Origin: an uncultured Desulfobacterales bacterium
GTDB taxonomy: Bacteria > Desulfobacterota > DSM-4660 > Desulfatiglandales > HGW-15
Assembly: GCA_964450535.1 (NCBI GenBank)
Contig: CAYVDE010000002.1
Span: 17,862-81,861, forward strand
Reading direction: 5' to 3'
Length of the DNA: 64,000 nucleotides
Numbering within the stretch: position 1 is the stretch's first letter; each line of letters opens with the position of its first letter. A program made the position numbers and the translations under genes. This document shows positions 35,023 to 46,739 of the stretch, piece after piece. The notes under the pieces are model-generated. The model worked only from the letters and a program-made list of their open reading frames with translations, was not told the origin of the DNA and did not search any database.

Positions 35023-38000
35023 ATGGGAATTACACGCGTGTTTCTTCTTATCTCGATTATGGCGTCTTTTTCATGGGGCGGTGTCTGCCCGCTGGTCCGG
35101 GCAAATGTCGCTGCTCCGCCGGAGATCCTCTATCTGTCTTCGGGGTCAGGGGACATAGCATTGGATTTGGAGCCGACGGACACTGAAGGTTTTTTCTTCA
35201 CAGGATGTGAGGCTCTTACCACCGTCGAGGTGGACGGGAGGCAAGTCCCTCACAATATCACTTTGGACGGTGGCGATCGTGCCATTGCAACGGCCCCGTT
35301 TTCCGGCCTCGAGGACGGAAGGCACAAGGCCGCGGCCGAGAGTCCCTGGAGCGTGGAGCAGGGCCCTTCCAGAAGGGAAGTCCTTTTTGTTGTGGACACC
35401 GAGCCTCCGGAACTCGAACTGATCGAACCGGAAACCGGGGAGCTTCAACCTAACCAGACCACCTTTCTGGTCCGTTGCCGTGACACCGTGGCCGGGGTTT
35501 CCCCGGACCCTGGTGCTTCCGGGCTCTCAATCACAATCAACGATAACGAGACGGCATGGGAATTGACTGAGGCGGACGGGGACCTGTTCTTCCTGGTCTA
35601 CTGTGTCACTCCCCAGTGGGAGCCGGATCAGGTCGTCAGGCTGCACATGAGCCTGAAGGACCGGGCAGGGAACCTTGCCGACTTGAACCGTTCCTTCAAC
35701 GTCGAGGTCCACGAGGATGAGTGGGATCTCGAGACAGTCAACTGTGTGGAAGGGGACGGCAGGACAGAGGGATTGTATGTCCTTCGTCGCATCCCTTTCC
35801 CTCTCAGGACGTCCATTCACTGGATAGGTTTTGATGCCGCGAACAGATCGATGACCCTTCCCATGGAACTGTCCACCCTTCAGGGCCTTCCTCTGGATCC
35901 CGGCATCTACGATGCCCTTGAGATAGTCGGCAACCATCCTTGCCTTCATGTGGACCGGCTTCAGAGGGCTCCGTCCGGGTCAGCTGTAGATTTCCGTGTA
36001 AGCCAGGTTTCCATGCCTGAATACAATGATTGCTTGGGGTCAATCACGATTAAATACCCCGAGTCCGTGGTTTTCGACTACGAGCTGGGCTGCCCGGAGG
36101 GGGAGCCCGGGATCATAGGTTCAGTGATGACTGCGGAAGGGCCCATGAAGAGCTACAACGTCCCTGTATCCCTCTACGGGGAGGGGGGCGGCTATTCGGA
36201 CAAGGTCCTGTTTCAGGACGGTCACCTGGTTTATCAAATTACCCTGACAGACTCGGGCGGCCTGGACACGTCGAACTCCTGGTTTGAAATGGAAGGGACA
36301 CGCGAATGGCTCACCGAGGTGGCGCAGGGGGTCTACGAGGCCTCGGTGCCCGTGATCCGGGAGGGCCTTTATGTCTATACCACGAGGCTTGCCCTTTCAG
36401 GCCTGTCGGAGTGGGGAGACGTCCGGGAAGGGGAGGTGATAGATGGGGGACGCTCTCTGCTCAAGACCGGGGACTTCTTTCTGGAACTTGACCCTCCCCT
36501 GATCGACCACTTCCACTATGACCGGGAGAACGAGTGTTTCAGGGCCATGGTGTCAGACCAGGGGACCTCGCCCGAGGACCTGGTCATGGAGTTGGTCGTT
36601 TCGGGAATCGGCGGGCTGGATCCCGGTTTCGACCCTGCCGCAGGGACCGTGGAGGCCTCGTTCCCAATGCCGGCGGGTGTTCAAGCGGGGCTTCTCAAGG
36701 TCACGGACCTGGCCGGGCAGACCACCACTGCGGTCTGCCAGGCCTTCGGCACCACGCCGCCTTCGCTTCCACTGGAGGGACACCACACAGAGTATCCGGC
36801 CACGGTCAAGGAGGCCTCGAGATCGGGATCAGTGAGGCCTTCGGGCGATTCGAGCGGGCTCAAATCCAGGCAGTACCTGGGGCAGTACAAGGACGGCAAG
36901 CAGGCTGTCGTTGAATGCATCAAAACGGCGGTTCCCGTCACAAAGGAGCACCCCCTTACGATCTGCCTGAAAGCCGCCCATGCCCGTTTCGGGACCGTCA
37001 CTGCTCCCGGTAACGAGCAGGGGTCTTCCTTGAAGATGACCTCACCGCCTGCACCGGAACCAAATCCGGCGTTAGCCCTGGCTGAAAAAGAGTGCAGGGA
37101 CAAGTACCCGCCGGGAACCCGCCACACCTGGAAATACGAATACACGGAGGAGTGCCGGAAAATATGGGTCGATACCCTTCCTCCTCGGATTCGGGACGTT
37201 ACCTTTCTGCCGGCTGGAAGGCGGGTCACCGCTCTCATCGACGATCACGGCATGCCTCTTTCGGATCTCCGCATAGGCTATTACATCACGCAGGATCCTC
37301 ACATCAACCCCTACAGCCGTATTGGGAATGCCTTCACCTTTGATACCGTAACCGGCCTGTTTGTGGGCGAGGCATCCCTGCTGAACGAGACGGAGATTTT
37401 TAAGGTCGAGATCAAGGCCACGGACGCTGCAGGGAACTGGAGCAATAACTGGCTTGAAGTAACGGCCCCGGTCAGTCCTCCGGACGTGTCTCTGGAAATC
37501 CTCAGAAAGGGGCCCGTGGCCTTCCCCTGGGGTACCTGTTATGACCGTTCGGGCATTGATCACCGAAAGACAAGAGCCTGGTTGGACGGGCGGCGTATAA
37601 ACCCTGTGGGCCTGCGCTACGGGCAATGGGCGGCAGGGCCTTCTACGGATCAGGTGGAGTTCGGGCCTGTGACCGAAGAGGGCCCCCACATGGCCCTGCT
37701 GGATGTTACGGACTTCGCCGGTCTTTCCTCCGAGGCCTCCGCCGCATTTAGTGTGTCCATCCCCCCAAAGATCGAGAACTTCCGGCATCTCCCAACGACC
37801 CTTCAGAATGCCGGAGGTCCCGCCTTCTCAGCCTTTATTCATGATAGCGGCAAAGACCTGTACCTGGAGGGCATTGAACTGGCTGTGGACGGAGCCGCCG
37901 TGGATCGGGACCGCCTCTATTATGACCCCCGGACCGGATATTTTGCAGCGGACGGTCCTATGGACCTCTGTCCAGGCATGCACCTGGCCCGGTTGACTGC

Positions 38001-39150
38001 AAGGGACGCCCACGGAAACAGCGATGAGGCCTTTCTCAGTTTTGTTCCGGGCGAGCGCATCCATATCCATGGCAAGGACCGGGGCGACCTCTCAATAGAG
38101 GAGGTGACCCTCTGGGAACTCCAGGAACACAACGGCGACGGCAAGGCCAATCCCGGTGAGACGATTCGCCTTTTCGTCAGTTTGACCAATTATGGGGCCC
38201 GAAAGCTCACCGCCGTGTCCGGACGTCTTGAGTCCCATGAGCCGGGCATTGTAGTGGAGCGGGACGAGGCCTCTTTCGGGGACCTTGAACAGGGCCGGAC
38301 GCTCACCCCGATGCATGGTTTTGACATCCGTATCGACGAGGGCTTTCTTGAAACTACATTCACCGATCCTTATGAGGCCGGTTTCACACTTGAGGCCGTT
38401 GATGAGACCGGTAAGACCTGGCTGCTTGACTTCAGTGTGCCCGTGTACCGGGCCACACTTCCGTTTCTCGTGCAGCCGGCCTCCCCCTCCCGCGGGAAGA
38501 CCGACCCTGCCGATCCCGATAGCATCTTGATCAGCGAGGTCATTGTCACCCTCGACACACTGCCTCCCAACACGGAAGAAACGGCGATCGAGGTCGCGGG
38601 TAAGGCGGTGAGCACTGCTTCGCTCATAGATGAGGTGATGGTCCGGGTAAACGGGGCCATGCACGCGCCGGACTGGAACCCCGTGGACGGGTCCTTTGTC
38701 GTGACCGTAAATCTTGACCTGGGGGACAACCTGATTGAGGCCGAGGCCGTTGACCTGACAGGCGCCATGGGCATGGACATGGGCTTTGTCCATCGCACGG
38801 CGCCGTATGTCCCTCCGGATATCCGGATCACGGAACCGGCCGACGGGGCGGACCTTGAATTGGATCCGGGATTCCTTCTGGGGAACTTCGATCCGGGGAG
38901 TTCAGCCGTGGCGAATATCCAGGCATCAATGACCGCGGAAGGGGAGACCGTTTCCTTTCCCATCGGCTATTCCAGCAGCGAGGGCGCTTTCTGGGCCGGA
39001 GGCGGGGCGCCTGAAAACCTGATCGTGTACTTCCGCCCCAACTGGGGATTTCCCACGAGGACCACTATCGTGCTGACTGTGATTCTAACCACCACGGACG
39101 GAGACACGGTGGAGGATACGGTGACCTTCACCTTTTTCATTCCACACTGA
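35023..39150 (+). CDS. large secreted multi-Ig-like-domain protein (1375 aa)
   Basis: ATG 35023 follows an AGGAG RBS and gives a signal peptide (MGITRVFLLISIMASFSWGGVCPLVRA). Recurrent Ig-like module starts (VVDTEPPELELIEP, WVDTLPPRIRDV, SPPDVSLEIL, IPPKIENF, YVPPDIRITEP). CARDB-like module NGDGKANPGETIRLFVSLTNYG. Confidence 0.7.
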   Translation: MGITRVFLLISIMASFSWGGVCPLVRANVAAPPEILYLSSGSGDIALDLEPTDTEGFFFTGCEALTTVEVDGRQVPHNITLDGGDRAIATAPFSGLEDGRHKAAAESPWSVEQGPSRREVLFVVDTEPPELELIEPETGELQPNQTTFLVRCRDTVAGVSPDPGASGLSITINDNETAWELTEADGDLFFLVYCVTPQWEPDQVVRLHMSLKDRAGNLADLNRSFNVEVHEDEWDLETVNCVEGDGRTEGLYVLRRIPFPLRTSIHWIGFDAANRSMTLPMELSTLQGLPLDPGIYDALEIVGNHPCLHVDRLQRAPSGSAVDFRVSQVSMPEYNDCLGSITIKYPESVVFDYELGCPEGEPGIIGSVMTAEGPMKSYNVPVSLYGEGGGYSDKVLFQDGHLVYQITLTDSGGLDTSNSWFEMEGTREWLTEVAQGVYEASVPVIREGLYVYTTRLALSGLSEWGDVREGEVIDGGRSLLKTGDFFLELDPPLIDHFHYDRENECFRAMVSDQGTSPEDLVMELVVSGIGGLDPGFDPAAGTVEASFPMPAGVQAGLLKVTDLAGQTTTAVCQAFGTTPPSLPLEGHHTEYPATVKEASRSGSVRPSGDSSGLKSRQYLGQYKDGKQAVVECIKTAVPVTKEHPLTICLKAAHARFGTVTAPGNEQGSSLKMTSPPAPEPNPALALAEKECRDKYPPGTRHTWKYEYTEECRKIWVDTLPPRIRDVTFLPAGRRVTALIDDHGMPLSDLRIGYYITQDPHINPYSRIGNAFTFDTVTGLFVGEASLLNETEIFKVEIKATDAAGNWSNNWLEVTAPVSPPDVSLEILRKGPVAFPWGTCYDRSGIDHRKTRAWLDGRRINPVGLRYGQWAAGPSTDQVEFGPVTEEGPHMALLDVTDFAGLSSEASAAFSVSIPPKIENFRHLPTTLQNAGGPAFSAFIHDSGKDLYLEGIELAVDGAAVDRDRLYYDPRTGYFAADGPMDLCPGMHLARLTARDAHGNSDEAFLSFVPGERIHIHGKDRGDLSIEEVTLWELQEHNGDGKANPGETIRLFVSLTNYGARKLTAVSGRLESHEPGIVVERDEASFGDLEQGRTLTPMHGFDIRIDEGFLETTFTDPYEAGFTLEAVDETGKTWLLDFSVPVYRATLPFLVQPASPSRGKTDPADPDSILISEVIVTLDTLPPNTEETAIEVAGKAVSTASLIDEVMVRVNGAMHAPDWNPVDGSFVVTVNLDLGDNLIEAEAVDLTGAMGMDMGFVHRTAPYVPPDIRITEPADGADLELDPGFLLGNFDPGSSAVANIQASMTAEGETVSFPIGYSSSEGAFWAGGGAPENLIVYFRPNWGFPTRTTIVLTVILTTTDGDTVEDTVTFTFFIPH

Positions 39151-39156
39151 ATTCGG

Positions 39157-46375: not shown

Positions 46376-46430
46376 TGGAAAATTATCAACCTAATTAGAG
46401 ATTAAAAACATAACAAGGGTCAATCAGGAA

Positions 46431-46739
46431 TTGAATATGTTTGGAATTCTGAGCTGGGGCATTGCTATAATTGTAGATCTCTTAATATATCTTTTAATCA
46501 AAAGTTACTCATCTAAGTACTTCTTAAGCATGAGCCAATTTAAAAGATCCATACTGTCAATACTTTTGCCTGCGATTATAACAGATATTTTAGTTCATAT
46601 TTTGATTACAATCGAAAGCGGCTATTCGGAAATGGCGATGTGGGCTTCAATTTCGTTTCCTTTTATCGGTTTATGTTTAATTTTCTTTAATTTTATCGCA
46701 ACAGCATTATATGAATGGAAGAAAGATTTCAGGCGGTAG
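46431..46739 (+). CDS. small multi-pass membrane protein, putative cognate immunity protein
   Basis: About 100 aa with three hydrophobic helices. Low GC like the toxin tip. It lies 55 nt downstream of the Rhs stop on the same strand. The immunity role is inferred from position only. Confidence 0.5.
   Translation: MNMFGILSWGIAIIVDLLIYLLIKSYSSKYFLSMSQFKRSILSILLPAIITDILVHILITIESGYSEMAMWASISFPFIGLCLIFFNFIATALYEWKKDFRR

Follow-up and report, generated by a model that had tools for sequence, protein, structure and literature searches.

How does a polymorphic Rhs toxin that carries a Sec-type signal peptide get from the periplasm of a diderm bacterium to the cell surface? The question is raised by a five-gene cassette in a 64,000-nucleotide stretch (the window) of contig CAYVDE010000002.1, from an uncultured Desulfobacterales bacterium related to sulfate reducers. 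To our knowledge, the exit of signal-peptide Rhs toxins from the diderm periplasm has never been shown; comparative genomics assigned them a default Sec/type II secretion system (T2SS) route. In this cassette, genes for a giant immunoglobulin (Ig)-like protein, an outer-membrane β-barrel and a tetratricopeptide repeat (TPR) lipoprotein (together, the trio) precede the Rhs gene, and a first-pass annotation had read the whole as a candidate Rhs export or display system independent of any type VI secretion system (T6SS). The adjacency of trio and Rhs, the barrel, the lipoprotein and the signal peptide all stood up to analysis; the idea of a system dedicated to Rhs did not, since in related loci either one occurs in the absence of the other. 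The reading that we favor, to which we give about an even chance, is that the locus is a composite operon: an envelope module (module A) that serves the giant Ig protein, joined by an optional Rhs toxin module (module B).

The five open reading frames (ORFs) lie at 35023-39150, 39157-40962, 41061-42077, 42116-46375 and 46431-46739, all on the + strand, with intergenic gaps of 6, 98, 38 and 55 nt. The ORF check reproduced the coordinates of the arrangement described at first, five co-directional genes with these gaps behind an AT-rich leader of about 450 bp. The start codons ATG 41061 (TPR gene) and ATG 42116 (Rhs gene) are backed by the N termini of homologues; the small last gene has TTG as its listed start, with an ATG two codons later. 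The features are as follows.

34573..35022, + strand: AT-rich leader upstream of the operon, 450 bp (sequence read).
35023..39150, + strand: giant secreted protein, 1375 aa, with a signal peptide and a predicted β-sandwich (Ig-like) chain (ORF, homologues, hhalign, AlphaFold, Foldseek).
39157..40962, + strand: predicted outer-membrane protein, 601 aa, with a signal peptide, a FlgD-type Ig domain at about aa 30-130 and a β-barrel at aa 150-601 (Pfam, AlphaFold, Foldseek).
41061..42077, + strand: TPR lipoprotein, 338 aa, with a lipobox ending in FMGFG-C25 and canonical TPRs at aa 37-125 (Pfam TPR_16, E = 2e-15; homologues).
42116..46036, + strand: N-terminal and shell part of the Rhs protein (Pfam/NCBIfam, motif, alignment of the N-terminal domain).
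46037..46375, + strand: C-terminal toxin domain of the Rhs protein, 112 aa with 13 Cys, of the Tox-PLA2 type (two-sequence profile against the PDB).
46431..46739, + strand: small protein, 102 aa, with three predicted transmembrane segments and a GC content of about 0.31 (ORF, Kyte-Doolittle).

Homologues of three query sequences, the barrel, the giant protein and the Rhs protein's N-terminal domain (N-domain), led to the related loci (labeled L001, L002 and so on). The barrel and TPR genes adjoin in every locus where both are readable, and a giant homologue precedes the barrel gene wherever the upstream gene is comparable, including the distant L016 (27% barrel identity); L015 has the barrel and TPR genes, with a partial upstream gene that carries no assignment. 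The upstream flanks differ between loci, which indicates that the cassette stays together as a unit across genomic settings. In L004 (12919-16290; in L020, about 6553-9060), an extra gene for a 1123-aa protein sits between the TPR and Rhs genes. Residues 47-585 of the L004 protein are 27% identical to aa 33-581 of the giant protein and are fused to a long TPR array, so that the fusion links the giant protein with the TPR component.

The same Rhs subfamily directly follows the trio in six loci (the window, L003, L004/L020, L005/L009, L006 and L007/L008), and the order of trio then Rhs is found in about half of the related genomes. At the lower end, such adjacency still holds where barrel identity is only 34%. 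In L003 and L005, a 4-nt overlap joins the start codon of Rhs to the stop codon before it; in L007, 8 nt lie between the two. Comparison of the window with L003 gives identities of 30, 34, 37 and 40% for the four proteins; they have diverged by roughly equal amounts, and the trio-Rhs arrangement must accordingly be old.

Four loci (L001/L002, L018, L011 and L016) have the trio without Rhs and with unrelated genes downstream: major facilitator superfamily transporters in L001/L002 and L018, an ATP-binding cassette transporter in L011 and HEAT/HD genes in L016. The invariant residues of the barrel are kept in the Rhs-less L001 and L011 members, the two present in the alignment, which argues that the trio has a function of its own. 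Conversely, the Rhs subfamily stands alone in L014, L019, L022 and L024, among housekeeping or toxin-antitoxin neighbors. In L019, the stand-alone Rhs gene is full length, encodes the same type of phospholipase A2 (PLA2) C-terminal domain and lies on a 191-kb contig with housekeeping flanks. Synteny of the three upstream genes with Rhs, on which the export proposal leaned, was therefore found in six loci and proved facultative in both directions, and the four loci of each kind indicate that the trio is not a dedicated Rhs exporter.

In two metagenome-assembled genomes (MAGs), trio and Rhs are on separate contigs, as judged by the shared locus-tag prefixes PVG49 and ACLFUP. L001, with a Rhs-less trio, and L019 come from a common metagenome, and their flanks have a tetranucleotide correlation of r = 0.58; this is suggestive of, and compatible with, one genome, and is not decisive. 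L017 (14244-14321) is a decayed cassette in the chromosomal context of the intact L018: next to an intact giant gene, the barrel gene is reduced to a 26-aa stub of its 5′ end, and the TPR gene has been lost. In L014 (547-1180), the stand-alone Rhs gene has a Polbeta/HepT (MNT/HEPN) toxin-antitoxin pair just upstream of it. In L013 (9343-10203), a 286-aa remnant of an Rhs N terminus, lacking aa 99-163 and ending early, was seen far from any trio.

What could such a trio do? The 601-aa protein had been described as a FlgD-Ig-like domain fused to β-strand-like sequence with the C terminus of an outer-membrane protein (OMP), and each part of this description was borne out. Pfam placed FlgD_ig at aa 47-109 (E = 1.8e-11), and FlgD matches in a PDB sequence search spanned aa 49-107 only. 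In an AlphaFold model made with 19 homologues (pLDDT 78.8, pTM 0.55), a disordered linker joins a six-strand Ig sandwich (aa 49-128) to a set of 26 antiparallel strands (aa 150-600); structure prediction, then, makes the protein a large outer-membrane barrel. The C terminus, EMGLEMKF, fits the OMP β-signal (polar-x-G-x-x-hydrophobic-x-aromatic) and is conserved among homologues, with E594, G596 and F601 invariant or nearly so in the alignment. The predicted protein thus combines the generic features of outer-membrane β-barrels: a signal peptide, an even predicted strand number (26) and an aromatic-ended β-signal. An even number of strands implies that the N-terminal FlgD-type Ig domain should be periplasmic. 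The most conserved stretch of the barrel is the invariant motif DDPMKLFSDFRTERKK (aa 235-250), modeled in a low-confidence loop between strands 5 and 6; speculatively, this loop may fold into the barrel lumen.

Among the 50 PDB matches listed by Foldseek for the barrel model, essentially all were large outer-membrane barrels, with TonB-dependent transporters, FimD/PapC ushers, LptD and MtrB as neighbors; E values were about 1e-7, TM scores just 0.3-0.4 and identities about 9-10%. MtrB had the top query-normalized TM score (0.42) among these 50 matches. As far as the model goes, this likeness is a generic similarity of large barrels and not family membership; kinship with LptD, ushers, TonB-dependent transporters or MtrB was found at the fold level only and was not used to assign membership. 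The barrel region has no Pfam family, and searches of Pfam, NCBIfam and PDB sequences matched the FlgD_ig domain only. A hidden Markov model (HMM) of the barrel, run against 1.84e9 representative proteins, returned only its own family, with 49 representatives. All full-length relatives are about 600 aa long and have the barrel at the matching position.

The giant protein has a signal-like segment at its N terminus and 16 homologues with 52-64% identity and lengths of about 1370-1400 aa, one exception being a partial entry of 1230 aa. Comparison of the family alignment with itself in hhalign revealed internal repeats at an offset of about 80 aa (E = 7e-13). In the AlphaFold model of aa 176-1375 (pLDDT 67.9), nearly all of the chain consists of short β strands, and a single Cys-rich helical insert occurs at about aa 644-694. 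Foldseek matched the model to multi-Ig chains, among them Nup210, GhpA (the grappling-hook protein of Aureispira) and SiiE, as well as the S-layer proteins EA1 and SbsB, cadherins and an ice-binding adhesin. As modeled, the protein is a tandem β-sandwich chain that resembles surface adhesins and S-layer proteins. Of the initial reading as a 1375-aa signal-peptide protein with Ig-like or CARDB-like modules, the Ig-like chain is supported by AlphaFold and Foldseek; CARDB was not confirmed, Pfam yielding just a weak Glucodextran_B match (E = 3e-4).

In the TPR protein, Cys25 follows a hydrophobic segment and is invariant in 9 homologues, with G or S as the residue in front of it; at −3 and −2, the lipobox is looser than the Escherichia coli consensus. 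The lipobox Cys after a hydrophobic signal segment is the mark of bacterial lipoproteins, and with the TPR repeats found by Pfam it agrees with the original call of a TPR lipoprotein with the lipobox FMGFG-C. BamD, PilW, AlgK, GltE and Tgl were considered as relatives and set aside as generic TPR matches far under the family cutoffs; PDB and NCBIfam searches gave nothing beyond generic TPR matches.

GC content falls to 0.45 at 34001-35000, which takes in much of the leader, versus about 0.58 nearby. The leader holds a sigma54-like −24/−12 motif, TGGCACGTATTTTGA, at 34902-34916. The motif TGGCA[CT]G-N4-TTG[AT] also occurs 107-140 nt before the giant gene in L004, L005, L007 and L012, where it is kept in otherwise diverged leaders. 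The −12 element reads TTGA or TTGT versus the consensus TTGC, and with this deviation the promoter is a putative one. In L001/L002 and L016, the trio is followed, after a few other genes, by genes for sigma54 activators. Divergent from the leader is a 354-aa ORF on the − strand (33508-34572) with no Pfam family; L007 has an unannotated 292-aa minus-strand gene at the matching position, and the more distant cassette loci have other, annotated genes upstream in its place.

Turning to module B, the Rhs protein begins with a signal peptide (aa 1 to about 25), followed by a clade-specific N-domain (aa ~26-135), a DUF6531-like plug start (aa 165-198), a YD-repeat shell and an RHS core with the autocleavage motif PVNLVDPKGL at aa 1298-1307. 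RHS_repeat (PF05593) matched in 17 stretches with E = 9.6e-98 and TIGR01643 with E = 4.9e-79; the core was matched by TIGR03696 (Rhs_assc_core, E = 2.1e-23) and PF03527 (RHS, E = 1.5e-16). Multiple YD repeats and a core that ends in PxxxxDPxGL place the protein among Rhs/YD polymorphic toxins. The signal peptide (n-region MKR, hydrophobic core, LPA-R) is conserved in type in 7 of 7 homologues, as judged from the alignment. The N-domain is about 110 aa long with a conserved Cys pair (EACL...GGC), and a search with it found 4 database proteins, 3 of them from Desulfobacteraceae MAGs or with RHS domains.

No PAAR/prePAAR, VgrG-binding, LXG, two-partner secretion (TPS), TcB or SpvB domain was found in the Rhs protein by Pfam or, for aa 1-345, by NCBIfam, which agrees with the initial description of an Rhs protein with its own Sec-type signal and no PAAR, VgrG-binding, LXG or TcB N-domain. 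An N-terminal signal peptide with no other trafficking domain by Pfam is what defines the Sec-dependent toxin class. Outside the cassette, Pfam was run on 29 window ORFs with 200 aa or more, on the ThiS gene and on 10 smaller ORFs chosen from the gaps that separate assigned genes. Among the ORFs scanned, Hcp, VgrG, PAAR, TssB/C, POTRA and TcA were all absent, in line with what had been claimed for the 64 kb, as were TPS genes and EagR. The protein thus lacks both the PAAR/prePAAR/VgrG-type N terminus and the neighboring vgrG, hcp, EagR or tss genes of T6SS Rhs effectors, and it lacks the TcB-like N-terminal half, the SpvB domain and the TcA gene in the window that would mark a toxin complex (Tc) protein. 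Likewise, no vgrG, hcp, EagR or tss gene appeared among the genes scanned beside L019 and L024 or in the Pfam tables of the cassette loci.

The toxin domain carries the motifs CGPG...CCASHDRCY. A profile made from the C-terminal domains of the window and L019 proteins matched the secreted PLA2 of Streptomyces violaceoruber (1faz/1kp4) in the PDB with E = 7.6e-5; all 4 PDB matches were PLA2, and the match covers the HD region. By this profile and the CxxHD motif, the Rhs C terminus is of the prokaryotic secreted phospholipase A2 type. Single-sequence searches stayed below threshold (PLA2G12, E = 0.22; Phospholip_A2_2, E = 0.22; PDB, E > 1), and the more distant C-terminal domain of the L003 Rhs protein has PLA2-type motifs with sub-threshold matches only. 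At about 45.85-46.8 kb, a span holding the toxin end and the downstream ORF, GC content falls from about 0.55 to 0.31-0.44. By its low GC content, this block is foreign to its surroundings, the pattern predicted for displacement of Rhs C termini, and it is consistent with a toxin/immunity cassette that was exchanged horizontally.

The fifth gene encodes a small membrane protein, as first described: Kyte-Doolittle analysis gives three hydrophobic segments, and no Pfam family matched. Its position makes the product a candidate immunity protein for the PLA2 toxin, and a membrane-embedded immunity protein would suit a toxin that acts on lipids and whose export takes it first to the periplasm of the producer itself. 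The L019 PLA2 domain is 47% identical to that of the window, despite a different downstream gene; there, the Rhs gene is followed in a very AT-rich stretch by a gene for a 361-aa predicted lipoprotein (14443-15528; LIGAGC lipobox) with no Pfam family. In L003, a gene for a 246-aa protein with an N-terminal LIGC motif and no Pfam family (17054-17794) follows Rhs.

From the observed gene content, predicted folds, toxin class and synteny pattern we infer a scheme in which protein topology, the passage of a protein through the barrel and any contact between Rhs and the module are all conditional. Module A (35023-42077) would be a rare envelope unit, conserved in Desulfobacterales-type bacteria and made up of the giant protein, the barrel and the TPR lipoprotein. 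The partner that constantly goes with the barrel is the giant Ig protein, so the barrel and lipoprotein most likely translocate, sheath or anchor it at the outer membrane. Their job would resemble that of ushers, which pass Ig-fold subunits, or that of the 26-strand MtrB, which sheaths MtrA; by analogy only, barrels of 24-26 strands are the size class that passes or sheathes folded domains of Ig size. Module B (42116-46739) would be a Sec-dependent polymorphic Rhs toxin with aspartyl autocleavage, a PLA2 end and a membrane immunity candidate, its toxin/immunity end probably swapped in by recombination. As an optional accessory of module A, it would be co-transcribed and often translationally coupled with it, and by docking on module A with its N-domain it might plausibly be displayed on the surface or released. 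Rhs would be neither the sole cargo of module A nor strictly dependent on adjacency to it.

Several observations weigh against this composite operon. Docking through homologous domains was considered and dropped: hhalign comparisons of the Rhs N-domain with the giant protein or the FlgD_ig domain were not significant (E = 0.018-0.33). The stand-alone Rhs genes of L014, L019, L022 and L024 suggest that export may need nothing from module A, and in L017 the giant gene survives deletion of the genes for the barrel and the TPR protein. Once folded, an Rhs shell does not fit through a barrel of 26 strands; any passage would therefore call for threading in an unfolded state, the way of two-partner secretion, whose defining elements were not found here. 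Finally, adjacency in six loci may reflect a single, vertically inherited ancestral arrangement rather than selection.

The strongest competitor, which we consider somewhat improbable, is that no functional link exists and that an ordinary Sec-dependent Rhs-PLA2/immunity pair happens to lie beside an unrelated surface-protein operon, with the toxin leaving by a general exit (T2SS, vesicles, lysis) or acting from the periplasm. Zhang et al. 2012 (PMC3482391) list such toxins under the default Sec/T2SS route with no signature neighbors, which fits this explanation, as do the stand-alone Rhs copies with only housekeeping or toxin-antitoxin genes around them and the trios that occur without Rhs. 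Rhs loci are also known to be hotspots of recombination, and in the present one the composition of the toxin end is foreign. Chance proximity is harder to square with the rarity of both families, 49 barrel representatives among 1.84e9 proteins and 4 N-domain matches, which are nonetheless adjacent in six loci. Translational coupling and the roughly equal divergence of all four proteins also speak for a link, and so does the restriction of the N-domain to close relatives (3 of the 4 matches being from Desulfobacteraceae MAGs or RHS bearing).

A more far-reaching possibility, which we regard as unlikely, is that the barrel, TPR and giant proteins form an unrecognized outer-membrane pathway that carries Sec-exported proteins to the surface, including the whole Rhs protein by way of its N-domain. 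The narrower original proposal, in which Rhs is the main cargo and the trio exists to move it from the periplasm across or onto the outer membrane after Sec export, appears quite unlikely. It draws on the six loci where Rhs comes right after the trio, down to 34% barrel identity and with overlapping stop and start codons, on the conservation of the Rhs signal peptide and clade-specific N-domain, on the solid barrel prediction and on the absence of other secretion genes among the scanned ORFs of the 64 kb. Those points are countered by the four Rhs-less trios, with barrel residues invariant in the two that were aligned, by stand-alone Rhs copies of the same subfamily and by the lack of POTRA or TPS-like recognition elements in Pfam searches; moreover, it is the giant Ig protein and not Rhs that constantly accompanies the barrel.

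That the Rhs protein is cargo of a T6SS or Tc system encoded elsewhere, an idea that draws on the visible sequence being 64 kb of the genome only, is very improbable given the cleavable-type signal peptide conserved in all Rhs homologues, the lack of a PAAR, VgrG-binding, EagR-dependent prePAAR, SpvB or TcB domain, the absence of vgrG, hcp or tcA beside the related Rhs loci with scanned flanks, and the Cys pair of the N-domain together with the 13 Cys of the toxin, which suggest oxidative folding outside the cytoplasm and count against T6SS or Tc loading.

The remaining genes of the window are housekeeping genes: Pta/Ack-like and Trp genes, a two-component system, an M16 peptidase and a helicase, and further ThiS, a molybdopterin oxidoreductase, SMC and FtsY. 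At 7184-8368, a gene for the outer-membrane lipid A deacylase LpxR was recognized (E = 1e-104), which implies that the source organism is a diderm with a lipopolysaccharide-bearing outer membrane. At 10107-15237, genes for LexA, a Y-family polymerase (impB/IMS family) and a DnaE2-like paralogue of the Pol III alpha subunit stand in a row and form an SOS mutagenesis cassette of the imuB-dnaE2 type.

What the cassette offers is a concrete, testable candidate partner set for signal-peptide Rhs proteins, namely, a barrel, a TPR lipoprotein and a giant Ig chain; the trio is a candidate platform for the Rhs toxin, neither proven nor dedicated. Should the outer-membrane pathway described above turn out to be real, it would amount to a T6SS-independent, contact-dependent route of Rhs delivery in a diderm bacterium. 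If the link to Rhs does not hold up, there is still the trio, a conserved and uncharacterized module of the outer membrane in Desulfobacterales that probably represents a new means of fixing a giant Ig-like protein to the envelope. These prospects are bounded by organisms that are all uncultured, by a trio-Rhs link that is statistical and partial and by an Rhs protein of known class. No description of the cassette, with barrel, TPR and giant Ig genes followed by Rhs, was found in the literature searched.

How does the cassette compare with systems that are already known? With two-partner secretion (FhaC/FhaB, CdiB/CdiA) it shares an operon that joins an outer-membrane barrel to very large Sec-exported proteins, one of which bears a polymorphic toxin and has a candidate immunity gene after it. 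It differs in that Pfam and the model give no Omp85-type 16-strand barrel, POTRA, Bac_surface_Ag or TPS domain. The chaperone-usher systems come close in another respect, since the 24-strand usher is a large barrel that passes Ig-fold proteins and FimD/PapC are among the best fold neighbors of the barrel. However, TM scores are 0.3-0.4 and identity is about 10%, the barrel has no Usher Pfam match, plug or C-terminal domains, the cassette has no gene for a PapD-like chaperone, and the partner is a single giant chain and not a set of polymerizing pilins.

MtrCAB and LptD/LptE likewise have a 26-strand barrel, which in their case encloses a partner protein. In contrast with those systems, the barrel HMM and Pfam detected no sequence relationship, no cytochrome or LptE-like plug is present, and the N-terminal domain is a FlgD-type Ig domain here versus a β-jellyroll in the LptD/MtrCAB comparison. 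A gene for an outer-membrane TPR lipoprotein beside one for an outer-membrane channel is also the arrangement of AlgK/AlgE, BamD/BamA, PilF/PilQ and Slam. The likeness to these pairs is that of generic TPRs only; the polysaccharide synthesis genes are missing, as is the DUF560 14-strand barrel of Slam.

Rhs toxins that leave the cell without a T6SS are also found in Gram-positive bacteria, where Bacillus subtilis WapA is an example of a wall-associated Rhs toxin. Like the protein described here, the WapA-type toxins are Sec exported, and they are displayed on the surface of the producer (PMC12704120). Their hosts, unlike the organism studied here, are monoderm, so that there is no outer membrane to cross, and wall-binding domains serve as the anchor. 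Within diderms, Bd0109 of Bdellovibrio bacteriovorus is a signal-peptide protein with RHS repeats that was expressed in the periplasm in the work concerned (PMC4267844). It resembles the present Rhs protein in having a signal peptide and RHS repeats in a diderm host, and it works with envelope machinery (type IV pili) and not with a T6SS; Bd0109 lacks the protease and the toxin end, and its neighbors and N-domain differ from those of the Rhs protein here.

The closest relatives are the signal-peptide RHS toxins that Zhang et al. 2012 (PMC3482391) grouped as the "T2SS/Sec-dependent" class, which includes RHS plus Tox-PLA2 proteins, is known in deltaproteobacteria and was defined without signature neighborhood genes. 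The first-pass annotation had named T6SS loading and Tc pores as the described routes for Rhs cargo; with this Sec-dependent class already cataloged (PMC3482391), that account was incomplete. The protein in the window shares with the class (PMC3482391) a signal peptide, RHS repeats, a PLA2-fold toxin akin to Streptomyces 1kp4 and a candidate immunity gene, and it departs from it in its specific N-domain and its recurrent linkage to the barrel/TPR/Ig module. The Rhs protein itself is therefore a member of an already known class, and the novelty appears to lie in the orphan barrel/TPR/giant-Ig module and in its repeated association with a single Rhs subfamily.

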